From an uncultured virus (IMG/VR IMGVR_UViG_3300030330_001767) (Duplodnaviria > Heunggongvirae > Uroviricota > Caudoviricetes): 64,000 nt of DNA. Shown piece after piece: positions 1 to 26,291 of this stretch. Position 1 is the stretch's first letter; each line of letters begins with the position of its first letter. A program made the position numbers and the translations under genes. The notes under the pieces are model-generated. The model worked only from the letters and a program-made list of their open reading frames with translations. It was not told the DNA's origin and did no database searches. The DNA lies in the IMG/VR virus record IMGVR_UViG_3300030330_001767; one strand, 5' to 3'.

Positions 1-74
1 ACCCTTGAAACACTTTCCCGACTAATAACCCGCTAAGGTGTTCATCTCGCTTTTCACATCCTTCACAAATGTTG

Positions 75-365
75 AGTGTTCATTTATCATCCATTTCTCA
101 CGCCGATGATAAATATTAATCTGCGAAAACAATACCGTTTCGCAGGTTTTTGGCGTTCATTTCTCATTTCTCACGTTTATCATCACTTCCTATAATAATA
201 ATAGGGGTAATAGTATATGAGAGAGAGTGTGTGTGTAGTAGTAATAATATAATGATAATAATGATAAATGATAAATGAATATCAAAAAACATTGATTCTA
301 ACCAAGAATCCCAACTTTCTACCCCTCGACCTTTCTCATTTCTATGATAATCGGTGAGAAATGAA
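75..365. repeat. Non-coding region with direct and inverted TCATTT(C/A)TCA repeats around an AT-rich, low-complexity core; candidate replication origin or terminus
   Basis: TCATTTATCA 80-89, CCATTTCTCA 91-100, TCATTTCTCA 157-166 and 164-173. Reverse-complement copies TGATAAATGA 262-271 and 269-278, TGAGAAATGA 355-364. 8-bp inverted repeat CTGCGAAA/TTTCGCAG 121-145. No ORF. Confidence 0.55.
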
Positions 366-658
366 GTGGAAAGTCAGAACTCATATCAGATAGAATATAA
401 CTATACTAAATCTCATACCAATATTAGTATAATATATTATATTATATTGCGACCCTGTTTGATACCCGATAAAATATAGTGATATTTAGGGAGCAAACCT
501 TTCGTGATGAACAACTAGTGTTCGTTAAGTATTACATTAGGTAGTGACTACACTGAAAGGGTCGCTTCCTACAATATGAAAACACCTCTGAGGGTATATG
601 TACCCTGTCCCACCACGCTCACCCCTCTGCCGACTTTATTTCTAATGCGTGTCTAACA

Positions 659-690
659 ACCATATGGTAGGCCACTTTGTCGGCATCCCC
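659..690. repeat. Palindromic element copy 1 (core plus right arm)
   Basis: ACCATATGGT 659-668, ACTTTGT 674-680, ATCCCC 685-690. Confidence 0.85.
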
Positions 691-761
691 AAAAGAACCT
701 TAGATTGGGTCGAGGCTTATCCCGCTTTTATACAGTCTGCGAAATACCATCATTTTTCAAA

Positions 762-929
762 TCAACCTTCTGCAATAATTATATCACACATTCGATTTAG
801 ATACGCACTCCTATGCTGAACATGGTCTGGGTTTTGGGTTAACACCTTGATTTCGTTATCCACGCCTCGTTGAGAATTATATGGGGCATCGGAACATTGA
901 CTTTGTATTATATGAGTTTTCAAGGTCAT
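762..929 (-). CDS. Possible 55-aa hypothetical protein (MTLKTHIIQSQCSD...)
   Basis: Hand-translated ORF below the track cutoff; no motif. Confidence 0.3.
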   Translation of the reverse strand: MTLKTHIIQSQCSDAPYNSQRGVDNEIKVLTQNPDHVQHRSAYLNRMCDIIIAEG

Positions 930-1030
930 CGAAGATTTACTGTCCAGTCAGTGTCATGAATAACTGAACCCTTTGCCCGAAGAACTTTCCGTTCTCGCAT
1001 TCCACTTGTGTTTTACTCTTCTCATTAACT

Positions 1031-1058
1031 CAAAGTTTGTTCGTCAGCCCCATATGGG
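1031..1058. repeat. Degenerate palindromic element copy 2 (left arm plus core)
   Basis: CAAAGT 1031-1036, CCCATATGGG 1049-1058. Confidence 0.5.
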
Positions 1059-1062
1059 AATA

Positions 1063-1245
1063 TCATTGTCTAAGAATAGTGTTGAATACCTTCAACGCTG
1101 AATCTAATTGTTCTAACGCACTTGGTAAGTCATCACTACGAACCTTAAGGCTCTTGATAACTAAAACATGGTCTTGACCTGATTTGGAGTGAGCCACTTC
1201 TAACTCATATGGATATATCTTGCCTTCAACTATCTGTGCCGTCAT
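1063..1245 (-). CDS. Hypothetical protein, 60 aa (MTAQIVEGKIYP...)
   Basis: ATG at 1245 preceded by AAGGAG. The longer TTG start in the track runs through the palindrome. Confidence 0.65.
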   Translation of the reverse strand: MTAQIVEGKIYPYELEVAHSKSGQDHVLVIKSLKVRSDDLPSALEQLDSALKVFNTILRQ

Positions 1246-1267
1246 ACTCCTTATCCACGAAACAGGA

Positions 1268-1337
1268 TATTTGGGGTGTCTCCTACAAAGTGTTACTACC
1301 ATATGGTTGGGATACTTTGTCAGAAAGACCCCAAATA
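1268..1337. repeat. Palindromic element copy 3 (full), between divergent genes
   Basis: TATTTGGGG...ACAAAGT(1285-1291)-N6-ACCATATGGT(1298-1307)-N6-ACTTTGT(1314-1320)...CCCCAAATA. Confidence 0.9.
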
Positions 1338-1408
1338 ACAAACTTCTGACTAAAAGAGTGCTTAGAAGGGTTTGAGAAAATCCGATTATTTTGAAAAGGT
1401 GATAAAAA

Positions 1409-1879
1409 ATGGAATGGAAAGAGTTTTCAGGAACAACACTAGCATGGCTAAAGAATGATAAGACTGTTGATGAAGCAGATGCTTCAACTATCAGCAGAAT
1501 GATTGAGAAGGGTAACGCAAACCCTACACGACAGGTTCGTATCTCAACTACAATCCGTGAGATTGCAAGAGATTACGCAACTGCTCCATATGGACAAAGA
1601 GGATACACTCTACCCGCAGAAGCACAAACCATCGTTAACGATGTAACTGCAATTGTGAATGAGATGGCTACTCTCTTTGATAACGGTGGAGATGCAATCA
1701 GAGCATTGCTTCTACCTAACCAAAGGAGCAAAGTCAAGCACTACCCTAACGGGTCTGCTTGGGCTTCTTCAGTTCTAAAGAACGTGAACGGCGTAGCAGT
1801 CAAACTATCCAAAGACGGAACTTGGGATGGTTCGATGGAGAGTCTAACCGCTACAATTTCGGAGGTATCTTCGGAATAA
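1409..1879 (+). CDS. Hypothetical protein, paralog of 3716..4225
   Basis: 156-aa ORF with AGGTGA RBS. Shares W.EF...AW, R..KG, RI.(T/S)T(I/V)R and D..T(A/S)P(Y/F) with 3716..4225. Confidence 0.85.
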   Translation: MEWKEFSGTTLAWLKNDKTVDEADASTISRMIEKGNANPTRQVRISTTIREIARDYATAPYGQRGYTLPAEAQTIVNDVTAIVNEMATLFDNGGDAIRALLLPNQRSKVKHYPNGSAWASSVLKNVNGVAVKLSKDGTWDGSMESLTATISEVSSE

Positions 1880-1919
1880 GCGGGTAACTCTCAGTTACCC
1901 TTCTAAGCACCCGTTCTTT

Positions 1920-1981
1920 GGGGTTTGAGATTACAAAGTATCTCTTACCATATGGTTTTGCACTTTGTCGGTAAGAACCCC
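1920..1981. repeat. Palindromic element copy 4 (full)
   Basis: GGGGTT...ACAAAGT(1933-1939)...ACCATATGGT(1947-1956)...ACTTTGT(1962-1968)...AACCCC. Confidence 0.9.
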
Positions 1982-2010
1982 ACTTATACCTTTATTAGTA
2001 GTCAAATACT
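1982..2010 (+). promoter_or_regulatory. TATA-like box (CTTATACC) about 25 nt upstream of ATG 2011; probable leaderless archaeal promoter
   Basis: Similar box and spacing before ATG 4866 (CTTAATACC) and the minus-strand ATG 4640 (ATTATACC). Confidence 0.55.
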
Positions 2011-2313
2011 ATGAAATGCAAGATATGCGGGACAGACCACACGGAAGATGACACAGAGAACTTGATAATGATAAGATGTTCTTGCGGTGCAACTCTAAAG
2101 GGTAATGCTTACCCTAAAGTCAGTGGTAAATCCAATCTTTTTACGAGAAGACATTACAATTGGCTTGTTGAGATGGCGTTAGACTTAGAATTAACACATA
2201 AACAGTGTAGAGAGTTGGCTGAAATGTTGGAGGGAACGAATCCTAAATACGATAGGTTGAAGTTCATTACAACCATTACAACATCAAGAAACAAAAGGAG
2301 TGGAGGAATATGA
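2011..2313 (+). CDS. Zn-finger hypothetical protein
   Basis: CKIC...CSC motif, 100 aa. Confidence 0.75.
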   Translation: MKCKICGTDHTEDDTENLIMIRCSCGATLKGNAYPKVSGKSNLFTRRHYNWLVEMALDLELTHKQCRELAEMLEGTNPKYDRLKFITTITTSRNKRSGGI

Positions 2314-2414
2314 TGAAAGTTTGCAGAGGGTGTTTACACGTAATGGAACACAAATGGACAAGGAAAGGGTATGCCTGTAAAAGATGCCTACACATAACAA
2401 CGGAGAGATACTAA
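2310..2414 (+). CDS. 34-aa Zn-ribbon microprotein (MMKVCRGC...CKRC)
   Basis: Hand-translated. ATGA overlap, GGAGG RBS, two CxxC, stop overlaps the next ATG. Confidence 0.65.
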   Translation: MMKVCRGCLHVMEHKWTRKGYACKRCLHITTERY

Positions 2415-2581
2415 TGTATAAGATAATTAGATTTAGATTTAATGGAAATAACACGACAATAAAAACAGGATTAACTCTTGAAGAGGCACAAGCACATTGT
2501 AAAGACCCTGAAACGAGTGGTTCAACTTGTTCGGATTTAAGCAAGCGTGGAATGTGGTTCGATGGATATACGGAGGAATAA
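2414..2581 (+). CDS. Hypothetical protein, 55 aa (MYKIIRFRF...)
   Basis: TAATG coupling with the upstream ORF. Confidence 0.7.
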   Translation: MYKIIRFRFNGNNTTIKTGLTLEEAQAHCKDPETSGSTCSDLSKRGMWFDGYTEE

Positions 2582-2583
2582 GA

Positions 2584-2724
2584 ATGGATGAAATAGTTGG
2601 ATATTGCGGAGAATGCGGAACAGGATATGAGAAAGGATTTACCTACAAAATGCCGGGAGATGGTGGAATTGTTTGGTATATCTGTATCAATGATAATTGT
2701 GGAGTGAGTTTACCATGCTCATAA
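2584..2724 (+). CDS. Zn-ribbon microprotein (CGEC...CINDNC)
   Basis: GGAGG RBS before ATG 2584; Cys pairs. Confidence 0.65.
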   Translation: MDEIVGYCGECGTGYEKGFTYKMPGDGGIVWYICINDNCGVSLPCS

Positions 2725-2846
2725 ATTGCATACGTTGCAATAAATGCGGAAACATAACAATCAAGCCGGAAGATGAAGAGTTCTTCGGTGAATGGGATGA
2801 ATGTATGTGTAGAGTCAATGAGATACTGGAGGAATACGGATTATGA
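2715..2846 (+). CDS. 43-aa Cys-rich microprotein (MLINCIRCNKCG...)
   Basis: Hand-translated. GGAGTGA RBS; ATGA coupling to the next ORF. Confidence 0.6.
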   Translation: MLINCIRCNKCGNITIKPEDEEFFGEWDECMCRVNEILEEYGL

Positions 2847-2968
2847 AAGTAATAAGTTGGAGAATTGAAATAGAGTTAGAAAATGGAGAGATAGGGCATA
2901 TATCAGATATTCCTAAAGATGTCGCTAATATGGTTGATGAATACCTTTCTGAATTGGAGGCTGATTAA
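2843..2968 (+). CDS. 41-aa acidic microprotein (MKVISWRIEIELENGE...)
   Basis: Hand-translated. GGAGG RBS; stop abuts the next ATG. Confidence 0.6.
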   Translation: MKVISWRIEIELENGEIGHISDIPKDVANMVDEYLSELEAD

Positions 2969-3256
2969 ATGGTTGACATAATAGAAATAAATGGAAGTAA
3001 GACAAAAGACATAACAGAGATAGAACTAACATACAATTGCTGGATGTCATTCAAAATAGATGAATTGGAAAATGTAGAACTATTCAAGACAGGAAAGGTA
3101 GTTAGATTTTGGGTTAAGTATTGCACACTACATATGGAGTTGCAAGATGGCACTGTTGTAGAAGAAGATGTCTCCAATGATTTGAATGAAGATACTAAAT
3201 GGCCTACACAGGTTATGGTTGAGGTTGATGGTGAATGGGAGGAATACAATGATTGA
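2969..3256 (+). CDS. Hypothetical acidic protein
   Basis: 95-aa ORF, GGAGG RBS. Confidence 0.75.
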   Translation: MVDIIEINGSKTKDITEIELTYNCWMSFKIDELENVELFKTGKVVRFWVKYCTLHMELQDGTVVEEDVSNDLNEDTKWPTQVMVEVDGEWEEYND

Positions 3257-3575
3257 TGATTACGATTACCAAAAAGACAAGGATGACGAGATGTTAGCAG
3301 ACTATTATTCAGATTTAGCAACGGAAGAAATACAAGCATACTGCGAACACCGTAATTCATACGTTCAAGGTACAAGGATTTTGATAGCGAAGGACTCCGA
3401 AGTTTTGAAAGGTGTAATATTGCGACAATACGGCAAACTGTTTTATGAGATTGAAGAACCCGACATTGAAGTTAATTACTACTGCTCAGATTGTGGGAAG
3501 GACATATGGCAATCAATTGATATTAGCGATTATCTTGAACGTCTTGATTGTGATGAGATACTCTCACAGGATTAA
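3249..3575 (+). CDS. Hypothetical protein with CEH...CSDC putative Zn site
   Basis: ATG 3249 after GGGAGG. Confidence 0.7.
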   Translation: MIDDYDYQKDKDDEMLADYYSDLATEEIQAYCEHRNSYVQGTRILIAKDSEVLKGVILRQYGKLFYEIEEPDIEVNYYCSDCGKDIWQSIDISDYLERLDCDEILSQD

Positions 3576-3582
3576 CGTAAGC

Positions 3583-3596
3583 CACCCTTCGGGGTG
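3583..3596 (+). terminator. UUCG-tetraloop hairpin CACCC-TTCG-GGGTG after the ORF stop
   Basis: Directly visible. Similar hairpins at 4278-4289 (+) and 4349-4370 (-). Confidence 0.5.
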
Positions 3597-3664
3597 TGCC
3601 TGATTCGACAAAGTGCCTCTTCCAACCATATGGTATGAACTACTTTGTGAATCTTGAATACCCT
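3591..3664. repeat. Palindromic element copy 5 (full)
   Basis: GGGGT...ACAAAGT(3608-3614)...ACCATATGGT(3625-3634)...ACTTTGT(3642-3648)...ACCCT. Confidence 0.9.
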
Positions 3665-3715
3665 AATACCCTAAATACGGGTAATATACCGTCTAAAACG
3701 ACAGGAGAAACAAAT

Positions 3716-4225
3716 ATGACCGAAAATAAATGGACTGAGTTCACTCAGAAGATAACCGCATGGAAAAGAGCGAATAAGGGATGGAATGACCCCGAACATG
3801 AGTCATATCAAGAGGATTTAGATTCTCTTGACCGAATCATGAAGAAGGGTAAGACAGATGAAGGCCGAAGGGCAAGAATCATGTCTACTGTTCGTACTCT
3901 CTTTATGGATATACCAACATCACCGTTCAGAACAGGCAAAGCCTCTTCGATTGATGCGGGTATGCTCGCAACATACAACGAAAACCGAAATGATGCCCGA
4001 ATTGCCTTGATTAGTGCATGGAATGCGTCAAAGTTCCTTCAAATGTATGAAGTAAGGAGCAAAAGAGGCGGAGGCGGAGTTTTCGCCACTGCCGAAGAGT
4101 ATGCTGACTATCAATTGAGTTCAACGGACTCAAGGGTTCACTCAGCAATGCGTGGAACATCAAAAGACTATCAGTTCGCTGATGGTAAGCCTCTAATCAA
4201 CCTTATACCTCAAAAGGAGGATTAG
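3716..4225 (+). CDS. Hypothetical protein, paralog of 1409..1879
   Basis: ATG 3716 after AGGAGA; shared N-terminal motifs. Confidence 0.85.
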   Translation: MTENKWTEFTQKITAWKRANKGWNDPEHESYQEDLDSLDRIMKKGKTDEGRRARIMSTVRTLFMDIPTSPFRTGKASSIDAGMLATYNENRNDARIALISAWNASKFLQMYEVRSKRGGGGVFATAEEYADYQLSSTDSRVHSAMRGTSKDYQFADGKPLINLIPQKED

Positions 4226-4284
4226 ACGGACGCAAAGTAGGGGGGGACACCCTAATTTCACCCCAGTTCCCCCCTACACCCTTC

Positions 4285-4351
4285 GGGGTCTAATGTTCGC
4301 AAAGCAATTTACAACCATATGGTTGGCACGAACTTTGTGACGTTAAACCCT
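4285..4351. repeat. Palindromic element copy 6 (full), between convergent genes
   Basis: GGGGT...GCAAAGC(4299-4305)...ACCATATGGT(4314-4323)...ACTTTGT(4332-4338)...AACCCT. Confidence 0.9.
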
Positions 4352-4376
4352 GAAAGGATGCCCGAAGGCAGTCCAA

Positions 4377-4640
4377 TCAGTATCCGTCATGAACCCTAAT
4401 CGGTTCAATGAAATACTTGGGGTTTTTGAGCATTTCACGGATTTGGTGCATCCTTTCAACGCCCTTACCACGAATAGCACCATTGAGGGTTGCGATTTCA
4501 GCAGTCAATCTGTCTATCTGTATTGCATTCATTCTTTTCACTTCCCGAATTGCACTTCTCTCATATTGGTGGTATTCTGTGATTCTAACTGTGTCATTTT
4601 CGTAGTTTCTGCTCTTTATGGCATACATTGTTCTTGTCAT
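4377..4640 (-). CDS. Hypothetical protein, 87 aa
   Basis: GGGAGGT RBS and TATA-like box upstream on the minus strand; hairpins downstream. Confidence 0.75.
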   Translation of the reverse strand: MTRTMYAIKSRNYENDTVRITEYHQYERSAIREVKRMNAIQIDRLTAEIATLNGAIRGKGVERMHQIREMLKNPKYFIEPIRVHDGY

Positions 4641-4672
4641 GTAGTATATACCTCCCTTTTCAGGTATAATTA

Positions 4673-4705
4673 GGGTTCTTTCCGCAAAGCACTAAACCAT
4701 ATGGT
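4673..4705. repeat. Palindromic element copy 7 (left arm plus core)
   Basis: GGGTT...GCAAAGC(4684-4690)...ACCATATGGT(4696-4705). Confidence 0.85.
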
Positions 4706-4801
4706 TGTAAAAAATTGTCTCGGCTGGTTTTGTGAGCCACTTTTCCTGTCAATTTTGACAAGTCATTTTCCACCATTTACAACTGTCAGTTTATTTCTAT
4801 T

Positions 4802-4838
4802 ACCATATGGTAGGATATACTTTGTAAAGAGACTACCT
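4802..4838. repeat. Palindromic element copy 8 (core plus right arm)
   Basis: ACCATATGGT 4802-4811, ACTTTGT 4819-4825, ACCT. Confidence 0.85.
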
Positions 4839-4865
4839 TAATACCTACTACTTCTTAGTAATACT

Positions 4866-5609
4866 ATGAGCGTAACATACGAACAGAAGGCAACATACCA
4901 GTACACCGACAAGAAGATGGGCGACCAAGCATTTTGCAAAGTCGCAGAGAGACTTATGGACAGTGGATTGATTTTGACCAGTTGGCATTATTCATCTGAA
5001 CCACCATCCATAACATATGGTCAAGTCGAAGAAGAGAATACATCATATGAATACGAAATCACCTTAGATGGAGAGACTGCATTCATGGCAAAGTATCTTT
5101 CAGACGCTAAAGAGTATGTCGAGCAGTTAAAGGAAAACAACTTCGATGCGTCTTATATTCGTCATACCAACACAAAGAGCAAGTTGGTTTGGCAACAACC
5201 CAAAGGGTCAAAGTTCTACTTGGGTCTTGATGCCTTTGAAGGAGAACTAGCATACAATAAGAGCCATCTCTCTTATACCTTCGATGGTAGTCATGAGGGA
5301 GCGGTTACTCTAACTCCAACAATGCGAAATACTGCTGATGGTGTAGAGTTAACTCTAACCACACAATTGACTTTAGATAAGGTTCTCAAGGCTGATAGAA
5401 TTAAACCAGTTATGGTTGATATCACTTTGAATGACTTTGGTATAATCAAGAGTTTAGTCGAAGATGCACTTCGTATCTTCAAGCCCCATACTACTGATTG
5501 CACCTTTGATGTGAAGACTCACTCTGAATCAGAGTGTTCACCCGATATTATCGCACAAAGGGAAGAAGCGACCAAACTTGCTCGCAATGCCTCACAAGAG
5601 GAAGAGTGA
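4866..5609 (+). CDS. Hypothetical protein, 247 aa
   Basis: Long ORF, probably leaderless. Confidence 0.85.
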   Translation: MSVTYEQKATYQYTDKKMGDQAFCKVAERLMDSGLILTSWHYSSEPPSITYGQVEEENTSYEYEITLDGETAFMAKYLSDAKEYVEQLKENNFDASYIRHTNTKSKLVWQQPKGSKFYLGLDAFEGELAYNKSHLSYTFDGSHEGAVTLTPTMRNTADGVELTLTTQLTLDKVLKADRIKPVMVDITLNDFGIIKSLVEDALRIFKPHTTDCTFDVKTHSESECSPDIIAQREEATKLARNASQEEE

Positions 5610-5632
5610 ACATAAAACCCATTGTCCCTAAC

Positions 5633-5675
5633 GGGGCTTTGTGGTCGTTTATACAAAGTTATCCAACCATATGCT
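5633..5675. repeat. Palindromic element copy 9 (left arm plus near-core); end of array
   Basis: GGGGC...ACAAAGT(5653-5659)...ACCATATGCT(5666-5675). Confidence 0.75.
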
Positions 5676-5750
5676 TTGCATTGCAAAATTTTTTTGTTTC
5701 ATTGTTTCTATTACCCAAAGTTAATTTGTATAACCTCTTAGCGACCATCA

Positions 5751-5978
5751 ATGACTGATGAGGCTGTTATTTTAGAACTGGTAAAAAACGCCAACACCAT
5801 ACTAGCCTCAATACGAGAAGAAATTGACATCATAAAGGCTCAAGGAAAGTTAGAACCTTCTTTGGATAAAAAATTAGTTGCAATAAAAACCGCTACAAAA
5901 CAACTCGGTAATGAGATATTAAACAAGGTATTCAGGCAAACACGCTTAACAGATTATGAGGGCTTTGACGCTAAATGA
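5751..5978 (+). CDS. Hypothetical helical protein
   Basis: 75-aa ORF. Confidence 0.65.
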   Translation: MTDEAVILELVKNANTILASIREEIDIIKAQGKLEPSLDKKLVAIKTATKQLGNEILNKVFRQTRLTDYEGFDAK

Positions 5979-5996
5979 TTTTTATTCTGGGAATAG

Positions 5997-6725
5997 GTGA
6001 AAAAGATGAAAAAAATTTTTGCTAGTCCCAAAAAAATTCCAGCCCATTTTTTGAAAAAAGACGGGGTAGAATCTTTTGACCTATGGTTTGATGCACTTCA
6101 CAAGATGGATGAGTCCGATAGTTGGCTTGACATTCTAAAACTAAGAAGTTCAGATGGTTCTGTTGCAGGTATGCCTAATTTCATTAGATTCTCAAACAGA
6201 ATATTTCAAGATGATAAAGAAGGCACATCTTCAGATAGCGGTGCTATGTTTCAAACCAACAATGGAACAGTTGTTATTGTCCGACCACATTTTGACGCAC
6301 AACAGAAGTTTAGTAGAGTTGGCAATCATAGGGATTACCCGTTGAAAGATGTTATTTTAGGAATAGACAATAATGTTCAAGGTCTTGGTAATTACACTTC
6401 CTTCGTTTCAGCAGGTAAGAAAAACCAAGCAGGTGAAGGAAATGTTGACGCTACCCTGAATTATACAATTCAAGGAATAACAAGACCGATGACAGGTTCT
6501 AACTTGTTGAATAGAACTGTTGCTCAGTTTATGATGGAAGTTTATCCTAAAGAAGATTTGAGTGCTTTTTCGACTGCTAGAAAAGTCATAATATTAAATT
6601 CAGTTCATGGATTCAAAGAATACAAAAAACAAGGTAATGTTAATTTTAGAAACATATGGCCTGAAACTTGGCAAGACAATGAACAACTACAAGATAGGCA
6701 AAGGCGTTTAGGTGGTAAGAAATGA
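5997..6725 (+). CDS. Hypothetical protein with two W-tag motifs (LWFDALHK, SWLDILK); start uncertain
   Basis: 242-aa ORF, coupled to the next gene. Confidence 0.75.
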   Translation: MKKMKKIFASPKKIPAHFLKKDGVESFDLWFDALHKMDESDSWLDILKLRSSDGSVAGMPNFIRFSNRIFQDDKEGTSSDSGAMFQTNNGTVVIVRPHFDAQQKFSRVGNHRDYPLKDVILGIDNNVQGLGNYTSFVSAGKKNQAGEGNVDATLNYTIQGITRPMTGSNLLNRTVAQFMMEVYPKEDLSAFSTARKVIILNSVHGFKEYKKQGNVNFRNIWPETWQDNEQLQDRQRRLGGKK

Positions 6726-6985
6726 GTTGGGAAGATATCATCAAACGGAAAAGGAAGAGATATCCCACAACTGCTCAAAAGAAGAATAAGAATTGGAACA
6801 ACCTCAGTGATGAAGAAAAATTCCAAGTTAGGATGAAAAGGTCTTGGAAAGGTGCGAACAAAAGAAGAGATAATGAAATAAGGGAAGCACAAATTTGCTC
6901 TAAATGTGGTAAAAAAGATAATCCGCCCAAGTCTAGGTTTTGTGTAAAATGTGGCAATAAAATGAAAGTGTGGTGGAAAGAATGA
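6722..6985 (+). CDS. Basic protein with C-terminal zinc ribbon; N-terminal W-tag
   Basis: MSWEDIIK; CSKCG...FCVKCG. Confidence 0.8.
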   Translation: MSWEDIIKRKRKRYPTTAQKKNKNWNNLSDEEKFQVRMKRSWKGANKRRDNEIREAQICSKCGKKDNPPKSRFCVKCGNKMKVWWKE

Positions 6986-7257
6986 AACAGTGGCTAATTA
7001 GAAAATTAATTTCGTTAATGGGTAACACATATGTTTGGTTGGATAAGAAACTAGACCATCCTGATGGGCCAGTTCTCGGTTTAGAGATTGATGATGACTT
7101 TGCACAGATGAGCAGGTATGAGTTATGTTGTCACATTGAAGATAAGTTCGGATTGGAAAGAGATTCTTTTTGGAAGTTGGAGTCAACTCAGAAGATAAGG
7201 TACTGTTGCCAAACTGCAAGGAACATACTTACGCCAAAGAAGAGGAAGAAGAAATGA
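6982..7257 (+). CDS. Hypothetical protein
   Basis: ATGA-coupled at both ends. Confidence 0.7.
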   Translation: MKQWLIRKLISLMGNTYVWLDKKLDHPDGPVLGLEIDDDFAQMSRYELCCHIEDKFGLERDSFWKLESTQKIRYCCQTARNILTPKKRKKK

Positions 7258-7511
7258 GTAACTTAAGCAAGTTTGATAGTCTTCATCATAGTGCGACTAT
7301 GCAGGGTTCACTAAGCACCGATGATGATTCTTGGTTTAACATACTAAGAATGGGAGGAGCAGTAACGTCAACCTCAAGCGGGACATCAGCATTATTCAAC
7401 AATAAAACGGGAGGGGGAAAAAGACGTGGTAAAAGGAAAAAGAGTCTCAAAAGACAAAGGTATCAAGACGAAATTACCAGACGGGACAGACGCTACAATC
7501 AACGTAAGTAA
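7254..7511 (+). CDS. Basic hypothetical protein with W-tag (SWFNILR)
   Basis: ATG 7254 coupled to the upstream stop. Confidence 0.65.
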   Translation: MSNLSKFDSLHHSATMQGSLSTDDDSWFNILRMGGAVTSTSSGTSALFNNKTGGGKRRGKRKKSLKRQRYQDEITRRDRRYNQRK

Positions 7512-8538
7512 GAGGTCTTTCGGACAGGCTTTCCAAGAGTGGGAAAGAAAAGCCGATGGACTTGCAGGTGATTCAATCGGGATGATTAGTCCCGAAGCCA
7601 GTGACATGAGTTTACTCGATGTAGTGAAGAATCAAGGAGTAACTGGAAGAATCAAAGGAAAGACTGGAAGTAAGATAAAGGGCAAAGGTGGAGTTGCTAT
7701 CTTCAAGGCGTTGAAGACTATCTTCTCTAAACCTGATATGTCGAAAGCACAGTTACCTGCTTTGAAAGCATTAGACAAACTAATGGATGGAATTGAGGGA
7801 AGTGCTGCTGACCCTCGTAACGTTGTATTCTCTAATCCAGTGGACTGGTCAGAAGACACTGGAAGAGTATTAGATACTGAACCTGTTTATGGTCATTATA
7901 GAACAGATGAGTATGAAACTGTTAGAGATTTGAAAGACGAGGATGTTCCCGCAGTTTCATCTGAATGGTATAATGATTCTAAGAATGCGGCGACACCACC
8001 ATTTTGGCAAGCACTTTATGGCAAAGGAACTAATGCTCCTTTCAATTCTCCAAGCCTACATATGATAATTAAACAGGCTATCAAAGATATTGAAGATGCC
8101 CCAATAATTATCAACAAGGATAACCCTGTTCCTATTGAGGGTAAGAAGGCTGCAACTACTGCCCTCACAATTTCTGTATTGAGAGCCATAGTAGAAACAG
8201 AGTTGAATAACGGAACAGAGGGTAAGTCATTTCCTGATAGTAAAGTTAGAAGATTGATTGTAGGACAGGCTCAAAACATAAAGAATGAGAAAGAGTCAGA
8301 TGCGGTTGAGAGCCTTAAGAGAATAAACGTTCCAAATGACATTGAGGAATGTTGGTTCAAGTTATCAAGAAGACAAGTTAAGTTGATGGCTTTTGAACTT
8401 GCTAAGAGAAAGGGCATCAAGATGCACTTCAAACAAGCAAGTGGAGATGTCGCGAGAAGCCCATTGGTTTTCGGAGAAAGACCTGACCCTGATACAGAAA
8501 AGAAATCTCTTGATTGGAAAGAGATGTTAGCGAGGTGA
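7426..8538 (+). CDS. Hypothetical protein, C-terminal DWKEMLAR
   Basis: 370-aa ORF, GTG start after GGAGGGGG. Confidence 0.85.
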   Translation: MVKGKRVSKDKGIKTKLPDGTDATINVSKRSFGQAFQEWERKADGLAGDSIGMISPEASDMSLLDVVKNQGVTGRIKGKTGSKIKGKGGVAIFKALKTIFSKPDMSKAQLPALKALDKLMDGIEGSAADPRNVVFSNPVDWSEDTGRVLDTEPVYGHYRTDEYETVRDLKDEDVPAVSSEWYNDSKNAATPPFWQALYGKGTNAPFNSPSLHMIIKQAIKDIEDAPIIINKDNPVPIEGKKAATTALTISVLRAIVETELNNGTEGKSFPDSKVRRLIVGQAQNIKNEKESDAVESLKRINVPNDIEECWFKLSRRQVKLMAFELAKRKGIKMHFKQASGDVARSPLVFGERPDPDTEKKSLDWKEMLAR

Positions 8539-13930: not shown

Positions 13931-14431
13931 ATGTTAGAGTTTCAAGAGATGTCTGAGGATGATGCCGTTAGAGTATTCTTAGATGACGGGTATTATGAAT
14001 ACAAAAAAAGAAGAGAACGTTATCAAAGGATATCTCCTAATTCATCTTGGGCTACTGCACCTGCAAGAATGTTTGTTGGTTTTTTAGAAGATAAACCAGT
14101 AGGAGTCATTGGTTTTGCTCCATACAAAGGAGTTCTTTTGGGAGCAGGTATTCATGTTAGAAGAGGATTCAGAGGTAGAGGATTAGCGCAGTTATTAGTT
14201 CAAAAATTAGTAGAGGAAAAAGGAGGACAAACTCTTTTTGCTAATATTGCTAATCCAAGAATTGCTAACACGTACAGAAGATATGGGTTCAAAGATATGA
14301 ATGAAGAAGAGTTACCCGATGACTCAAGAAATGCTATTCGGGGATTAGAGTTCGCAGACCAAGTTCAGAAATGGGTTTGGGGAGTTCATCGAGATGTTTG
14401 GTTTGACGTGGTGAAAAATGGAATTAGATGA
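13931..14431 (+). CDS. GNAT-family acetyltransferase
   Basis: Acetyl-CoA motif A IHVRRGFRGRGLAQLL; N..I...Y.RYGF motif B. Confidence 0.85.
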   Translation: MLEFQEMSEDDAVRVFLDDGYYEYKKRRERYQRISPNSSWATAPARMFVGFLEDKPVGVIGFAPYKGVLLGAGIHVRRGFRGRGLAQLLVQKLVEEKGGQTLFANIANPRIANTYRRYGFKDMNEEELPDDSRNAIRGLEFADQVQKWVWGVHRDVWFDVVKNGIR

Positions 14432-15851
14432 TTTAGATTTTGTTTCAGCAATGGATATGGAACTATCTAAAACTTCATTTCCATATTTTTTTCAAAATGT
14501 TCTTGGAATGATGTTTCCTCCGTATATGCAAGAATGGTTAGAGTCAATGGAGAAAACAGATAGAACCGTTATTGTTTGTAGTCGCGACCACGGAAAATCT
14601 GTTTTTATGCACAGTTGGGTAGTGTGGAATCTTGTGTTTCAAGAACCACCATATCAAATGCTTTACATTTCTTCTAACCAAAAGCAGACTCTTGTTCACA
14701 TGAGAGAAATTGACAGATACTTCAACCACCCTGCTCTTAAAAAATACAAGCCCAGTAGGGGTTGGGCTATTGGTAACATTCAGTTAACAAACGGTAACGC
14801 TATCTTGGAGCGTTCCGTTGGTTCTCAAATCAGAGGACTTCACCCACAGGAGATTATTATTGACGACCCTTTGAAGGAGTTTAGCCTTGCAGGTATTCAA
14901 CGAGTTACAGATTGGTTCTTTGGGGATATGATACCAACACTTCATCATACATCTAAGTTGAGAATGATTGGAACTCCGTTTACCTACACAGATATTTTTG
15001 CTCAGTTAGAGGAGAATGAAGCATATTCTGTTCAGAAGTATCCATGTCTAAACTCTTTGAATGAACCACTTTGGCCTGAACGTTGGGGTTATGACGCATT
15101 GATGAAAAGAAAAGCAGAGATAGGTTCTCTCAAGTTTACAAGAGAATATCTCTGTGTCCCTATTTCTACTGGAACTGCTTTATTTAATCCTGAGTTCATA
15201 GAGAAGTGCAAGAACAAAGATTACGTTTTGAAACTTGGACATCGTAAAGAAAAGGGATACAAGTATTATGTTGGAGTTGACCCTGCTATCTCAACTGATG
15301 GTGACTATAATGTAATTACAGTTTTAGAGGTTGATGAAAATAAAAACAAAACCATAGTTCATGTAGATAGGGCTAAGAATGTAGATTTTAGAGAGAACAT
15401 AGAGAAGATTAGATTGATTGGTAAAATCTTTGAACCCGAAGAAGTTCTCTATGAAACCAACACTTTCGCAAAAGCATTTACACAAGAACTACGAAACATA
15501 TCTGACTTGAATGTTAGAGATTTTACAACTACAAGAAAAAAGAAACAGGAAATAATTCTGAGTCTTCAAATGAATATAGAAAACGGGAAAATAAATTTTC
15601 CATATGGTGATAATGCGAGTAGAAGACTAACCAATGCTTTGATAGAAGAACTGTCTATGTTCTCTATTACTGCTGCCGGAAAATTTGAGGGTGTAGGAGC
15701 GCATGACGACTTAGTTATGAGTTTAGCATTAGCAGTGGCTTGTGCTACAAAGACATCAGATGTGTTCATGTTGTTGGATGATATGGGAATATTTGATGAA
15801 CCTAAGCCAATGAACAGGTCTTTAGGCGGAATGATGGGGCTGAACTTCTAG
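14418..15851 (+). CDS. terL: Terminase large subunit
   Basis: Walker A SRDHGKS, Walker B IIIDD, coupling motif GTP, RNase H nuclease YVGVDPA...HDDLVMSLALA. Confidence 0.95.
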   Translation: MELDDLDFVSAMDMELSKTSFPYFFQNVLGMMFPPYMQEWLESMEKTDRTVIVCSRDHGKSVFMHSWVVWNLVFQEPPYQMLYISSNQKQTLVHMREIDRYFNHPALKKYKPSRGWAIGNIQLTNGNAILERSVGSQIRGLHPQEIIIDDPLKEFSLAGIQRVTDWFFGDMIPTLHHTSKLRMIGTPFTYTDIFAQLEENEAYSVQKYPCLNSLNEPLWPERWGYDALMKRKAEIGSLKFTREYLCVPISTGTALFNPEFIEKCKNKDYVLKLGHRKEKGYKYYVGVDPAISTDGDYNVITVLEVDENKNKTIVHVDRAKNVDFRENIEKIRLIGKIFEPEEVLYETNTFAKAFTQELRNISDLNVRDFTTTRKKKQEIILSLQMNIENGKINFPYGDNASRRLTNALIEELSMFSITAAGKFEGVGAHDDLVMSLALAVACATKTSDVFMLLDDMGIFDEPKPMNRSLGGMMGLNF

Positions 15852-17192: not shown

Positions 17193-17785
17193 CTTGGTTT
17201 AGCATTCTGAAAAAAGATAACAGTGGTTGGGTTGGAGAGTTAGATGACTCAAAGAAAAAATATCTAAAAATGACACCTAAAATTAAAGTTAAGATTCCTG
17301 ATTTTGAGTATCCTGATGAGAAAACAGAGATACCTAAAATATTAGATGCAATGAAAAATAAAAAACTAAAACCTACTGAAATGGAAGAGACAGATAAAGA
17401 AGCAAAAAATATGTTATTTAGTTTGGTAGAAGATAGTAAAGAAAATTACAAAGACCTTATCAGAGATTTGAAAATATATACTACTAAGCAGAAAGTAAAG
17501 TACAACAGGAAAAGACCATATCAAGTAACAGATAAAATAAAAATGCCTAAAACTACAACCATAAACACTCCATCTTTTCCAAGTGGACACTCGATTGAAG
17601 CATTTGGAATTGCTACTGCTTTAGCCCACAAGTTTCCTGAGAAGAAAAAAGAACTGATGGAAGTTGCTGAAAAGATATCAGATGCAAGAGTGGAGATGGG
17701 AGTTCACTACCATTCTGATAAAAATGTAGGAAAGCAAATAGGAGAGATGATTGGTAGAGCGTATGTAAAGGAGGCGATGTCATGA
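17189..17785 (+). CDS. PAP2/acid phosphatase-haloperoxidase superfamily enzyme (probable ATA start at 17189; first ATG at 17270)
   Basis: KVKYNRKRP (Kx6RP), PSFPSGH, ARVEMGVHYHSD. Confidence 0.85.
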   Translation: MTWFSILKKDNSGWVGELDDSKKKYLKMTPKIKVKIPDFEYPDEKTEIPKILDAMKNKKLKPTEMEETDKEAKNMLFSLVEDSKENYKDLIRDLKIYTTKQKVKYNRKRPYQVTDKIKMPKTTTINTPSFPSGHSIEAFGIATALAHKFPEKKKELMEVAEKISDARVEMGVHYHSDKNVGKQIGEMIGRAYVKEAMS

Positions 17786-23672: not shown

Positions 23673-23699
23673 ATCCCTACGAAAGACGTGAGGGGTCAG

Positions 23700-26291
23700 A
23701 TGCCGCAAACAGGATTAGAGTTTGAAAAAGAAACAAGTGGCCTAACAAAACAGGTCTTAGATTTTTTTGAGAAGGTTCGCTACTCCTATCTTTCAGCAAG
23801 AGAAAATCCCGATGATTATGGGGATGCTTGGAAGAAAACAGTCAAGGATATCAGAGAACAATTAGATTCTCTTGATGATTTCAGCAATGAATTGAAAACT
23901 TATGTCAAAGAAGACGTGGCTCAATCTGATGAGGCATACAACCCAAAATCAAGACAAGCAAAAGAATTGTATGAATCGGTAAAGGAACTCAGGTTCAAAT
24001 CCGAAAAGGTCAGTGACCCGTTTTCAAAACAACTTGGTGATAATGTAATACCTAAGTTGTTGAAGAATGAAGCATTGTTTGCTTATTTTATTCACTATGC
24101 TTTACGCTCTCATGCAAATGCTTTACCTGAAAAGGCATGGAAAGCGGTAGAACTCAAACCCGATAAGATAACTCAAAATGTAATGGGTTTGGATTTAGAG
24201 CCAAAGGACATTCCATTATACATCATAGAACATTATGGTGGAGAAGAGGAAGACACAAGAAGAGTGGAAAGTAAGTTCAAGGGGGCTTACAAATTATTAG
24301 AGAAGGTGTATGCTTCTCAATATGATGAAGATAAGTGGGATAATCTCGTTGAGTTAGATATTGCAAAGAGTGAACAAAAACAAGAAATTGACTTTATCGT
24401 TCCCAACAAACCAATGTATAGAATTTTTGAAATAGATGATATGAAAGAAATCAAAGGTCTTACTGGTGAATATATTGTTCAAGAAAAATATGATGGTATG
24501 AGAATACAACTTCACAAGTTCAATGGTAAAGTCAGAATATACTCTTTCAATGAAAAGGACATTACAGATAAGTGTCCAAAACAAGTTAAACAACTGGAAA
24601 AGAAAATGTTCAATGATTGTATATTGGATGGGGAACTCATGTTGTTCGATGGTGATGAACCATTACATAGAGCAGATACAATAGCCCATGTTTTCAAGAA
24701 TAAAAAGGGTGGTGAACTAAGGGCACACGTCTTTGATATTATGGTTCATGAAGGAAAGAACATTTCTGATGAAACTCTACGAGAAAGAAATAATATTCTT
24801 TTGTATCAGTATGCTCAACATTCGTCTGAGGACTTAGCGTTCCCATCTAAGAAGGATACAAGAATCGCTGATTCCATAAAAGAAGTAGAATCCTATGCTA
24901 AAGAAATAATGCAGTTACCTGCATCAGAAGGTGTGGTAATCAAAGATATAGAATCAACATATTACATTGGAGTTAAGAAAAATCCTAAGTGGATTAAGTG
25001 GAAGAAGTTCATTGATTTGGATGTTGTAGTTTTAGATGATAAGAAAACAAAGAGCAATCTACATTCCTACACAATGGGAGTTGGGCCAGTTAATGCTGAA
25101 ACTGCGAGGAACTACAAGACTGTTGAGTTTGAAGATAAAGACTACTTAGAAGTGGGTAAGGCTCTCAACACAAAACAATCAGTAAAAATTGGTAGTATTG
25201 TTAGAGTAAAAGTTGATGAAGTTAAGAAAGGTAAAGATGGGTTCAAACTATTTTCTGCTAAAGTTATAGAGATACCCGAAGTAACCCAATCAGATACGGT
25301 TGAAACATTAGAGCAACTAGCAAGTAAAACAAAGAAATCTCTTACTGCAATTGGATATACATTTGGAGATAAGGTAGGTGGGATGTTTGAAGTCACATCA
25401 GGATTAGAGAACCCAAGAGGTCAGAAAAGGAAAGATGTCAAGAAAGGATATTACATTACAGACCACATACATGGAACTGCTGAGATTATTCTAAAAGAGG
25501 ATATGAATGGTTTCACAATCTATGGTTTTGAAGGAGATTCTCTTATGCAGAAGAATGCTCTATACAACATAGACTTGTGGAAAGAGCAAGTAATTAGTAT
25601 AATGAAAGGGAAACGTTCTACTTTTAGATTGGCTATTCGTAATGAAATATTAGAGAGTGGTAGAGATAATCTAAGGTTTGAACAGATATTAGATTATGTT
25701 AAGGACAAACATCAAGGAACTTTTCAAGACTTATTCGATTCTGATGAAGGAAGGTTAATGTCTTGGATGAAACAACAAGAAGATTTAGTTTACCTTCATC
25801 CTAACAAGTTTACTGCAAGAGAAGATATACTGGAAAAAGATGTTGAAGAATTACAAAAGGAAGAAACAGGTAAGTATACAATTAATCTTAGAGAAGATGA
25901 TAATGTAGATTTAATCATAGAATACAAAGACGAGCGTATGGGTTGGACTATTGATATTGAAGAGTCAGAAGACATATACGAATTGTTTGGTAAGTCAGGT
26001 AAGTATCCGGCTATTGTAATGAAGAATGCAGGTGAGCCTAAGAAAGTATTGGATAAAGGCAGTATAGAATTAGGTATTCAAAAAGATGGATACCATGAAT
26101 ATAGATTAGATGGAGATAAGTTCCAAACAAGAATGCACTTTAGAGTAGTTCCGTTAGATGAACAAAAGAGTTGGATAGCATGGACAGGAAAAAAACAAGA
26201 AATGTTAGACGATGAAGAGAACCCAAATAAATGGAATCTGAATGAAGATTCTTATGCTCAATTACCCTTCCCTTCGGATAAAAAAGAGTAA
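23700..26291 (+). CDS. lig: ATP-dependent DNA ligase with N- and C-terminal extensions
   Basis: Motif I QEKYDGMR, III ILDGEL, IIIa HVFDIM, IV EGVVIK, V WIKWKK, then an OB-fold region. Confidence 0.9.
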   Translation: MPQTGLEFEKETSGLTKQVLDFFEKVRYSYLSARENPDDYGDAWKKTVKDIREQLDSLDDFSNELKTYVKEDVAQSDEAYNPKSRQAKELYESVKELRFKSEKVSDPFSKQLGDNVIPKLLKNEALFAYFIHYALRSHANALPEKAWKAVELKPDKITQNVMGLDLEPKDIPLYIIEHYGGEEEDTRRVESKFKGAYKLLEKVYASQYDEDKWDNLVELDIAKSEQKQEIDFIVPNKPMYRIFEIDDMKEIKGLTGEYIVQEKYDGMRIQLHKFNGKVRIYSFNEKDITDKCPKQVKQLEKKMFNDCILDGELMLFDGDEPLHRADTIAHVFKNKKGGELRAHVFDIMVHEGKNISDETLRERNNILLYQYAQHSSEDLAFPSKKDTRIADSIKEVESYAKEIMQLPASEGVVIKDIESTYYIGVKKNPKWIKWKKFIDLDVVVLDDKKTKSNLHSYTMGVGPVNAETARNYKTVEFEDKDYLEVGKALNTKQSVKIGSIVRVKVDEVKKGKDGFKLFSAKVIEIPEVTQSDTVETLEQLASKTKKSLTAIGYTFGDKVGGMFEVTSGLENPRGQKRKDVKKGYYITDHIHGTAEIILKEDMNGFTIYGFEGDSLMQKNALYNIDLWKEQVISIMKGKRSTFRLAIRNEILESGRDNLRFEQILDYVKDKHQGTFQDLFDSDEGRLMSWMKQQEDLVYLHPNKFTAREDILEKDVEELQKEETGKYTINLREDDNVDLIIEYKDERMGWTIDIEESEDIYELFGKSGKYPAIVMKNAGEPKKVLDKGSIELGIQKDGYHEYRLDGDKFQTRMHFRVVPLDEQKSWIAWTGKKQEMLDDEENPNKWNLNEDSYAQLPFPSDKKE

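Follow-up and report, generated by a model that had tools for sequence, protein, structure and literature searches.

What role do the copies of a short palindrome play that separate the genes of a compact array near the left end of a tailed virus genome? The array lies at 659-5675 of the 64,000-nucleotide (nt) DNA of an uncultured member of the Caudoviricetes (IMG/VR record IMGVR_UViG_3300030330_001767), and this whole stretch is called the window below. An initial annotation, made from the sequence alone, offered two answers, either an integron- or shufflon-like platform for swapping gene cassettes or an operator-promoter for a dimeric early regulator. We consider it probable that the copies, referred to here as joints, represent a common archaeal promoter/operator module that also serves as a joint for recombination in the accessory-gene switch region of a magrovirus. 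The hosts of magroviruses are uncultured, and to our knowledge nothing has been learned by experiment about gene control or diversification in these viruses.

Palindromic cores in the window and in related viruses

The core ACCATATGGT occurs exactly at 659, 1298, 1947, 3625, 4314, 4696 and 4802, in each case between genes, and is frequently extended to ACAACCATATGGTTGT. Copies with one mismatch are found at 5666, 5012 and 15599. The total of 10 matches with at most one mismatch compares with 2.15 expected, and 0/100 shuffles reached 10. The copies at 5012 and 15599, together with a CCATATGG at 1586, are intragenic and armless and were taken as chance occurrences. The degenerate core CCCATATGGG at 1049 is genuine and is kept at the same place in the relative G007. 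The seven exact and two degenerate cores (1049 and 5666) of the initial annotation were all recovered. When the two sides of each core were aligned as half-sites, they followed the pattern ATGGT, 5-10 nt, (A/G)CTTTG(T/C), 6-14 nt, ACC(CC). Such arms stand on both sides of the cores at 1298, 1947, 3625 and 4314, on the right only at 659 and 4802, and on the left only at 4696 and 5666, which agrees with the CTTTGT and ACCC(C) arms, their mirror images and the one-armed copies as first described.

The array consists of six cassettes (C1-C6, Table 1), each made up of a promoter, its gene or genes and a hairpin, with four in forward orientation and two inverted (C1 and C5). Every cassette has a 5' arm with a TATA box and a 3' arm without one. 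The initial annotation was correct on the two minus-strand genes (1063-1245, 4377-4640) and on the gene pair converging at 4314.

We scanned IMG/VR with an exact pattern (19 of 64 parts scanned) and obtained at least 161 loci on 113 contigs, with ~410 stretches estimated in all. Among the 113 contigs listed, 44 carry at least two armed cores and 34 carry at least three within 0.9-5.4 kb; these counts are underestimates because many loci carry just 300-nt flanks. All 10 relatives examined contain a single 2-4 kb array at the divergence of two gene arms, where a leftward block (UvrD-like helicase and others) departs from a rightward block leading to the structural genes. The CCATATGG cores inside the array, out of the total, numbered 8/8 in G002, 8/9 in G006, 6/6 in G004, 6/11 in G005, 6/9 in G003, 7/7 in G007, 7/9 in G008, 6/6 in G009, 6/7 in G010 and 5/6 in G011. 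Scanning the rest of the genome had been suggested at the outset; in the window and three whole genomes armed cores are confined to the array, and the stray cores in those three genomes are armless.

A search of 600-5700 with blastn against 50,697 phage and virus records, among which the presence of the archaeal tailed virus HF2 was unchecked, returned no match. A host regulon was considered and rejected, as a scan of genome contigs (2 of 64 parts, covering no Poseidoniales genome) gave single matches in unrelated bacteria, one per locus in 80/80 of those listed, at a rate close to chance by our arithmetic.

Assignment to the magroviruses

Profile searches with PHROG and Pfam placed the large terminase subunit (TerL) at 14418-15851 and also identified a portal, an S78 protease, an SU10-type capsid protein and a tail tube in the window. 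The best match of TerL among cultured viruses is just 28% identical; between the window and the contigs found with the motif, amino acid (aa) identity is 68-74% for TerL, 70-72% for the portal and 59-60% for the capsid protein. The open reading frame (ORF) 23688-26291, between portal and protease, contains a DNA_ligase_A_M domain, in agreement with the structural-module ligase of magroviruses. Relatives with 59-74% identical structural proteins are 84-97 kb long and have an archaeal-type replication set, which lies beyond the 64-kb window. One of them, the complete contig G002, encodes a split family-B polymerase, RFC, XPF/ERCC4, an archaeal-type ligase, ribonucleotide reductase, a Cpn60/TCP1 chaperonin and ThiF+JAB.

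The accessible part of PMC5434244 describes the magroviruses of Marine Group II (MGII) archaea as genomes of ~65-100 kb with near-complete archaeal-type replication genes, a split polymerase, RadA-like and nuclease genes and, in groups A/B, a second ATP-dependent ligase in the structural module; it counts them among the most abundant marine viruses. The profile that the virus taxonomy committee ICTV gives of the related family Aoguangviridae records two gene clusters read in opposite directions and a TFB gene (PMC10768690). On its gene content and that of its relatives, we assign the window to a magrovirus (order Magrovirales), a tailed virus of marine Poseidoniales archaea and not a bacteriophage. 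With an archaeal host, the promoters of the window are to be read as archaeal.

A crAss-like or N4-like phage, suspected from the ORFs of 2408 and 3286 aa, was not supported by PHROG or Pfam. Early promoters of a crAss-/N4-like virion RNA polymerase were likewise rejected, since no such polymerase was detected with PHROG or Pfam and no DFDxD-type motif was found in context. The phi14:2 preprint reports no common early motif.

Predicted promoter arms and gene-end arms

We examined promoter geometry in 279 unique arms whose stems measure at least 3 bp; 152 of these have an ORF start no more than 140 nt ahead of them. The ACC-ATG distance showed a sharp peak at 25-34 nt (62/152) and a broad second group at ~55-85 nt. 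The sequence directly adjoining ACC on its 3' side has the consensus Y-T-A(90%)-T-A-T-A, with examples in the window at 1984, 3664, 4665-4672 and 4838. In the gene-facing arms, the ACC half of the stem occupies the position expected for the TFB recognition element (BRE). This arm-TATA-ATG geometry is that of an archaeal TATA box with a leaderless or short-leader mRNA, and we regard it as a predicted promoter. The TATA-like boxes noted initially are real and, since the host would be an archaeon, are best read as archaeal TATA boxes.

Arms at gene ends have no TATA box and run into a GAAGGG-type sequence, which corresponds to a CCC-TTCG-GGG hairpin on the sense strand, immediately behind the stop codon. 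The complete copy at 4314, which lies between convergent genes and had been singled out as standing where a promoter is not needed, is consistent with this division, since both of its arms are of the 3' type and have no TATA box.

The spacing of CTTTGT to TAATAC is 11-13 nt by direct reading, which does not fit a sigma-70-type early promoter; the arrangement is of the archaeal type instead. Upstream of genes outside the array we found mostly Shine-Dalgarno-like leaders. A few CCC+TATA promoters without a core are present elsewhere in G002, indicating that the C-rich BRE is not specific to the array. A strict ACC-TATA pattern scan of whole genomes was too narrow to have a bearing on promoter counts, and PMC5069720 gives no MGII promoter consensus. 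In G001 (~95% identical to the window; reverse strand, corresponding to window 1328-1345), the box after the right arm of joint 2 is CCCCATATGGC, not CCCCAAATAAC, which suggests that the promoter-proximal ACC+ATAT is itself a core-like half-site. The CCCCATATGGC variant also begins an RNA-library contig of run X16.

Hairpin structure of the arms

Each arm has the form of its own stem-loop, GGT..(R)CTTTG(Y)..ACC, with a stem from the core GGT to ACC(CC) and the tip R-CTTTG-Y. Pairing is between the bases that follow the core GGT and those that precede ACC, and the stems vary by copy (for example GGTAATA/TATTACC, GGTACTA/TAGTACC and GGTTGTAAA/TTTACAACC). As a control, 5' stem halves were exchanged between arms in 200 partner swaps. 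The mean perfect stem of 333 unique arms was 4.47 bp vs 3.40 bp in the swaps (maximum 3.52), and 77 of these arms had stems of at least 6 bp vs a swap mean of 10.7 (maximum 20). Stems of at least 5 bp numbered 135, with 64 distinct sequences. At the pair that closes the tip by flanking CTTTG (311 arms), A-T was found 137 times, G-C 55 times (18.3 expected), G-T 34 times and A-C 3 times (36 expected). The arm stems covary across the family.

Among gene-facing arms, the tip pair was G-T in 10 vs A-C in 2 of 106, and among gene-end arms it was G-T in 11 vs A-C in 0 of 68. That G-T is tolerated and A-C nearly absent on both kinds of arm suggests that, to either side of the core, a structure forms on the single strand reading outward.

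These observations modify the ~65-bp palindrome of the initial annotation. Its arms are present, but they are not merely palindrome halves, as each arm is a stem-loop of its own and the left and right spacers are not complementary (0.42 vs 0.48 in the control). Nor do spacer lengths on the two sides correlate (r = -0.17 in 127 two-armed copies), and selection for a single long hairpin was rejected on both grounds. A wobble bias in the lower stems was set aside because the mismatches are too few to judge; the 5' arms contain 3 G-T among 587 pairs, with A-C equal. An Rfam search of 1-7000 matched no family. RNAalifold predicted no pairs for 46 of 63 arms (most of the longest omitted), on a MAFFT alignment that misaligned the variable stems.

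Breakpoints between relatives

We grouped the array ORFs into families across 11 genomes and aligned related contigs, the check proposed with the initial annotation. As judged from these alignments, relatives differ by cassette insertion, deletion, transposition and inversion with breakpoints at the core. The cassette order is A(F1), B(F1), C(F7,F4), D, E(F5) in G003 and A, C, D, B, E in G010, and the blastn matches of B, C and E between the two genomes begin within 2 nt of the core. G007 and G008 are 90-94% identical, and G008 has an armless insert of ~83 bp. Identity in this pair is 44/45 to the left and 15/45 to the right of the first (degenerate) core, and 8/45 to the left and 42/45 to the right of the second. 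Relative to G007, the window has an inverted homologue (37% aa identity) of the F31 cassette plus a 96-bp armless interval, inserted into a single G007 joint. Core-anchored identity between the window and G007 is 24/45 on the left and 13/45 on the right at 4314, and 12/45 and 29/45 at 4802; window 4311-4369 matches the end of the G007 F31 cassette, inverted.

The arms of matching cassettes are nearly identical (0.97 for the right arm of 3625 vs that of G007 8984, and 0.87 for the left arm of 4314 vs that of G007 9679), indicating that arms travel with their cassettes. The assignment of arms to cassettes was noisier in G003/G010. G001 is collinear with the window across the array, and all rearrangements seen are between lineages. 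The cassette model thus stands in part: content, order and orientation do change at the core between relatives, but membership in the integrons or shufflons does not follow, as no recombinase was found and the cassettes have their own promoters.

Candidate proteins

The initial statement that no recombinase is visible was borne out. Phage_integrase (PF00589) had no match among the window ORFs scanned and was found in 0/5 near-complete relatives, with the control positive in 14/14 genomes; Resolvase was also found in 0/5. Y1_Tnp (PF01797) gave one 15-bit match and was over the cut-off in 0/5 near-complete relatives. A LAGLIDADG nuclease as the core-cutting enzyme was rejected, with LAGLIDADG_3 over the cut-off in 0/5. 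The 442-aa ORF after TerL has no sequence relative in the PDB. Cutting by an NdeI-like enzyme followed by religation was also considered. CATATG was observed 40, 24, 33 and 38 times vs 23.9, 35.7, 33.2 and 38.8 expected; since the site is not avoided, a restriction-and-ligation mechanism is unlikely.

G002 encodes a 295-aa TFB/TFIIB homologue (L172:5136-6023), and homologues are present in G005, G006, G008 and G009 (4/4 other near-complete relatives). The protein has a TFIIB zinc ribbon and two cyclin-like repeats, and its gene is located in the replication arm. The best Foldseek match of its model (predicted local distance difference test, pLDDT, 70.5) was the Pyrococcus woesei TFB core with TATA-binding protein (TBP) and BRE/TATA (E = 4e-5), and the next matches were TFIIB in pre-initiation complexes. 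Because TFB reads the BRE, the viral TFB would be the natural candidate reader of the array promoters, a role that we infer for it. A magrovirus map showing a TFB has been published before (PMC10768690).

The commonest cassette family, F1, comprises 20 ORFs in 11 genomes, usually 2-3 per array, with window members at 1409-1879 and 3716-4225 and further members in the leftward block of G002, G005 and G006. An alignment of 18 ORFs from 10 genomes (two near-duplicates of G008 left out) showed that a Trp close to the N-terminus is invariant and that the proteins have a PHGRSGGG-like loop and an acidic tail (EEE). The F1 model is all-helical (pLDDT 80.7) and has no PDB fold match at E <= 0.001. No Pfam or PHROG family was matched by the cassette proteins, and the early host-takeover role given to them in the initial annotation is conjectural.

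RNA-library contigs

Assembled contigs on the cassettes were obtained from four metatranscriptome runs of three studies, the runs having been chosen using 600-5700 itself. In run X15, 8/8 contigs are at least 99% identical to the window. One of them ends at 1241, 4 nt from the minus-strand ATG at 1245, and another starts at 4863-4866, where the ATG is at 4866. Other contigs start at 1383, 1998 and 3704, and contigs of all 4 runs lie on C1 (from 746, 830 or 878 to 1201-1264). The X15 contig ends are a weak hint of leaderless starts; the RNA evidence gives only such hints because the contigs are assembled, the runs were selected with the array itself and DNA is possibly present. Contig cover at 5700-8300 was sparse, but as 600-5700 had served to pick the runs, this does not show the region to be silent.

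Proposed mechanism and points against it

In the reading we favor, a joint comprises three pieces, namely the invariant core ACCATATGGT, an arm on one or both sides, and the element beyond the arm. A 5' arm leads straight into the TATA box, with ACC at the BRE position and the ATG either 25-34 nt away or behind a longer leader, and a 3' arm has no TATA box and abuts the GC-rich TTCG-loop hairpin of the preceding gene. Six autonomous cassettes are joined at the cores, and the array is closed by a core and a predicted oligo-T terminator. Host RNA polymerase with TBP and TFB, possibly the virus-encoded TFB, would start at every 5' arm, and the core with its hairpins would provide one common control site for a binding protein, shared by all cassettes. 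Exchange of cassettes would most likely proceed via the virus's own homologous or microhomology recombination, not via a dedicated recombinase. What we infer in this mechanism is that the 5' arms are active as promoters, that a common regulator acts on the core and hairpins, and that viral recombination functions carry out the exchange.

Several observations weigh against it. The initial operator-promoter proposal is right in that the motif belongs to promoters, as the ACC-TATA-ATG geometry indicates, but a plain promoter leaves the kept 3' arms, the armless cores and the stem covariation unexplained. The hairpin tip tolerates G-T and nearly no A-C in 5' and 3' arms alike; this suggests single-strand structure, which a double-stranded operator does not need. 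A core that is invariant despite 59-74% protein identity exceeds the needs of homologous recombination alone. In the window, single arms are weak hairpins (z = -0.7, +0.2 and +0.3 vs shuffles; local stems of 3-5 bp), and two-armed joints give better folds as a single long, imperfect hairpin (z = -2.2, -1.4, -3.0 and -2.5); relatives have strong single arms (z = -5.4 and -4.2) and twin hairpins. The TFB gene is outside the window and not linked to these promoters. Gene changes are not all at cores, as G001 has an indel inside C1 and 2973-3269 can be lost from C3. The latter was seen in X16 and X18 contigs that join 2972 to 3270 with 14 other letters between, which points to a related strain without the 95-aa gene 2969-3256 and hence to a gene-level indel away from a core. 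Finally, RNA-library contigs cross joints (1355-3582, 3573-4333 and 4447-4779), with DNA carry-over possible in such libraries.

Alternative explanations

Because the 3' arms, the armless cores and intervals, the strand-specific tip tolerance and the invariant core are left unexplained, a dedicated recombination enzyme stays the main rival, although we judge it unlikely. An unrecognised viral or host enzyme would bind the outward-strand hairpins and cut or exchange DNA within the symmetric core, giving site-specific excision, insertion and inversion; in function this would resemble an integron or shufflon, though with another enzyme. Such an enzyme would account for breakpoints at the 10-bp core, for inserts flanked by core copies and armless mini-inserts between cores, for cassettes in both orientations, and for a core that is invariant while the arms diverge. 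It would also fit stems that covary with G-T tolerated on one strand only. Integron attC sites are recognised by structure and have covarying stems. Set against this are the profile searches of the five near-complete relatives (Phage_integrase and Resolvase 0/5, Y1_Tnp and LAGLIDADG_3 0/5 over the cut-off) and the Aoguangviridae ICTV profile, which reports no integrase or transposase (PMC10768690). The changes we observed separate lineages, with the ~95% identical G001 collinear with the window. The core would be preserved just as well by a conserved promoter/operator, and in viruses that have recombination genes of their own, identity over 10-15 bp can sustain recombination; T4 recombination requires <50 bp of homology, according to the accessible part of PMC2839356.

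An RNA-level element appears improbable. Here the transcribed joints would act as terminator, stabiliser or processing hairpins between cassette mRNAs, much as RNase III sites sit between T7 early genes. The sense-strand TTCG-loop GC hairpins that end cassettes and share GGGG with the 3' arm would suit such a role, as would the RNA-library contigs that run through joints and the tolerance of G-T at the hairpin tip. However, the 3'-arm G-T is on the outward strand (11 G-T vs 0 A-C of 68), which is antisense to the upstream mRNA, and the lower stems of the 5' arms hold as few G-T (3/587 pairs) as A-C. Rfam gave no match, no T-run follows the arms save in the closing element, and most contig ends lie outside the arms.

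Slightly less probable again is a role in replication, with the cores as origin or priming sites at the gene-arm switch and hairpins forming to each side on the template of the lagging strand. In the three whole genomes, cumulative GC and AT skew reach their extremes at the array, but the skew switch is confounded with the switch in gene direction. The strand preference of the hairpins is symmetric about the core, and a low-complexity A+T-rich stretch lies just to the left (window 1-650). Unlike origins, however, the joints occur in 6-10 copies interleaved with genes and welded to TATA boxes, and their copy number and spacing follow cassette content.

Selfish palindromes of the repetitive extragenic palindrome (REP), bacterial interspersed mosaic element (BIME), REPIN or miniature inverted-repeat transposable element (MITE) type, spread in the region and only secondarily promoters, are the least probable explanation, as the paired inverted hairpin with a conserved tip and the armless or decayed copies (1049, 5666 and G008 6921) are outweighed by the confinement of the elements to a single array in each genome, where they lie at gene boundaries in a fixed geometry to TATA and ATG, by a position conserved across the virus family, and by the lack of a Y1/RAYT-type transposase in the 5 near-complete relatives.

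Comparison with known systems

By comparison with published descriptions, the joints appear closest in function to the promoter-early stem-loops (PeSLs) of T4-type phages and the intergenic repeats of HF2, and do not appear to be an integron. PeSLs are reportedly also treated by Comeau et al. 2014 (PMC4122927). In the accessible part of PMC2839356 (Arbiol et al. 2010), PeSLs are, like the joints, intergenic combinations of promoter and stem-loop before small orphan genes of a hyperplastic, variable region; the genes that they flank are gained, lost and replaced among relatives, crossovers fall within the motifs, and no dedicated recombinase is known. PeSLs have sigma-70 promoters and a stem-loop that is an RNA terminator (PMC2839356, same part), whereas the magrovirus joints have an archaeal TATA box with a stem at the BRE position, an invariant palindromic core and hairpins on both sides. 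Moreover, unlike in PeSLs, some magrovirus cassettes are inverted and all copies lie in one array, and there is no sequence relationship between the two.

The class I/II repeats of HF2 and other haloferacalesviruses likewise belong to archaeal tailed viruses and are intergenic repeats with TATA/BRE promoters kept in relatives, as described in the accessible part of PMC8707807 (Russ et al. 2021). They are 29-58 bp long, with TATA at about -26 and BRE at -33 to -37, a geometry that the magrovirus arm and TATA box match when compared by description, not by alignment (PMC8707807). Unlike the joints, the HF2 repeats are directional and spread over tens of kb with their positions kept, and that part of the source reports no cassette shuffling; neither 'palindrom' nor 'hairpin' occurs in its text.

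Integrons have an IntI tyrosine recombinase by the array and promoterless cassettes in one orientation, expressed from Pc. Like attC/attI arrays, the magrovirus array has cassettes bounded by imperfect palindromes that, beyond a short core, are conserved in structure but not in sequence, and cassette content varies. Unlike in integrons, no IntI-type recombinase was found, a separate TATA arm belongs to every cassette, two out of the six cassettes are inverted, and neighbors share a perfect 10-bp palindrome. Shufflons are inversion-only segments within one gene, acted on by an Rci-type tyrosine recombinase; here no tyrosine recombinase was found, and the cassettes are separate genes that are also moved, gained and lost. 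REP, BIME and REPIN elements are inverted hairpin pairs dispersed genome-wide and mobilised by RAYT (Y1 HUH) transposases. The joints resemble them as paired inverted short hairpins in intergenic DNA, but lie in one array, are fused to promoters and are accompanied by no Y1 transposase that we could find.

Within the literature covered, we found no published description of the joint system. No mention of such a repeat, palindrome, promoter or motif was found in the magrovirus texts PMC5434244, PMC10160649, PMC10768690, PMC5332604, PMC8651126 and PMC7318539, as far as accessible, with supplements and Zhou et al. 2023 outside the scope; 'palindromic' in PMC7318539, which mentions magroviruses, belongs to the spelled-out name of CRISPR.

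The motif constitutes a predicted promoter class with exact geometry that could be tested in vitro with the virus-encoded TFB. The core plus CTTTG hairpin is a marker for locating the variable accessory-gene region in any magrovirus contig, and the joints provide defined junctions for seeking cassette exchange in long-read viromes. The system would extend the idea of a regulatory cassette as a shuffling joint, so far reported from T4-type phages, to archaeal viruses with eukaryote-like transcription. Should a structure-specific nuclease or recombinase act on the core and its two strand-specific hairpins after all, which we doubt, magroviruses would carry an archaeal virus-borne platform for cassette exchange that is mechanistically unrelated to integrons and in which each unit has its own promoter.

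Map of the array and neighboring features

Table 1. Joints, cassettes and associated elements of the window array (5' arms are promoter arms, 3' arms are gene-end arms; promoters and hairpins are predicted)
Feature	Position	Strand	Content
Joint 1	659-690		Core 659-668; right arm only (669-690), no TATA, 3' arm of C1; left side armless
C1	746-1245 (right arm at 660 to left arm of 1298)	-	Gene 1063-1245, 60 aa, family F4
C1, further elements			Possible ORF 762-929; decayed core CCCATATGGG 1049-1058
Joint 2, left	1275-1297		Promoter arm of gene 1063-1245; AAATAT box 1267-1272
Joint 2, core and right	1298-1338		Core 1298-1307; arm 1308-1330, promoter arm of gene 1409; AAATAA 1333-1338
C2	1409-1879	+	156-aa protein, paralogous family F1, all-helical model, acidic C-terminal tail
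Joint 3	1920-1989		Left 3' arm 1922-1946; core 1947-1956; right 5' arm 1957-1979; TATA (TTATAC) 1984-1989; ATG 2011
C3	2011-3597	+	~9 small ORFs (2011-3575), several with Cys-pair zinc-ribbon-like motifs; CCC-TTCG-GGG at end
Joint 4	3593-3669		Left 3' arm 3593-3624; core 3625-3634; right 5' arm 3635-3662; TAATAC 3664-3669
C4	3716-4288	+	169-aa F1 paralogue (3716-4225); CCC-TTCG-GGG end hairpin
Joint 5 (convergent genes)	4287-4349		Left 3' arm 4287-4313; core 4314-4323; right arm 4324-4349, 3' arm of C5; no TATA on either side
C5 (inverted)	4355-4672	-	Gene 4377-4640 (87 aa); end hairpin ~4361-4368; TATA TAATTATA 4665-4672
Joint 6	4674-4705		Left 5' arm 4674-4695; core 4696-4705; no right arm
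Armless 96-bp interval between two cores	4706-4801		Ends in GTTTATTTCTATTA; CTGTCA repeats inside
Joint 7	4802-4844		Core 4802-4811; right 5' arm 4812-4837; TTAATAC 4838-4844; ATG 4866
C6	4866-5609	+	247-aa protein, family F5; homologues in 6 relatives
Closing element	5643-5695	+	Left 3' arm 5643-5665; degenerate core ACCATATGCT 5666-5675 straight into CTTTG; run of seven T 5689-5695
CCC-TTCG-GGG end hairpins	3585-3594, 4279-4288	+	
CCC-TTCG-GGG end hairpin	4361-4368	-	

Oligo-T is the usual archaeal terminator, and the run of seven T in the closing element is predicted to be of this type. The same combination of core, CTTTG and T-run also ends the arrays of G002, G003, G005, G006 and G010.

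Armless two-core intervals of 29-205 bp are also present in G008 (L186; from a degenerate core to the core at oriented 7005), G004, G009, G002 and G006. The ending GTTTATTTCTATTA just before a core is common to window 4706-4801, the G008 interval and window 633-659, and the intervals of G002 and G006 share a conserved block of ~30 nt. Candidate identities for these intervals are genes for small RNAs, alternative promoters and empty cassettes.

To the left of the array, window 1-650 is non-coding and of low complexity, with AT-rich runs, GA/GT runs and short direct repeats (repeats at 210-267 and 420-453). The G001 contig stops within this stretch, at window 454, and window 48-691 matches the left array flank of G007 at 69%. 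The region could be an assembly breakpoint or origin-like. The same weak LAGLIDADG-like match is found at both ends of the G002 contig (274-417 and 96464-96607), so this record seems to be terminally redundant despite its label as linear with no end repeats.

Among the packaging and head genes of the window are a GNAT acetyltransferase (13931-14431) and a PAP2-family phosphatase (17270-17785). Two giant ORFs, 41929-49155 (2408 aa) and 49611-59471 (3286 aa), lie downstream of the tail tube; the first probably encodes a tape-measure-like protein, and a tail-fibre PHROG match was obtained in the second only.

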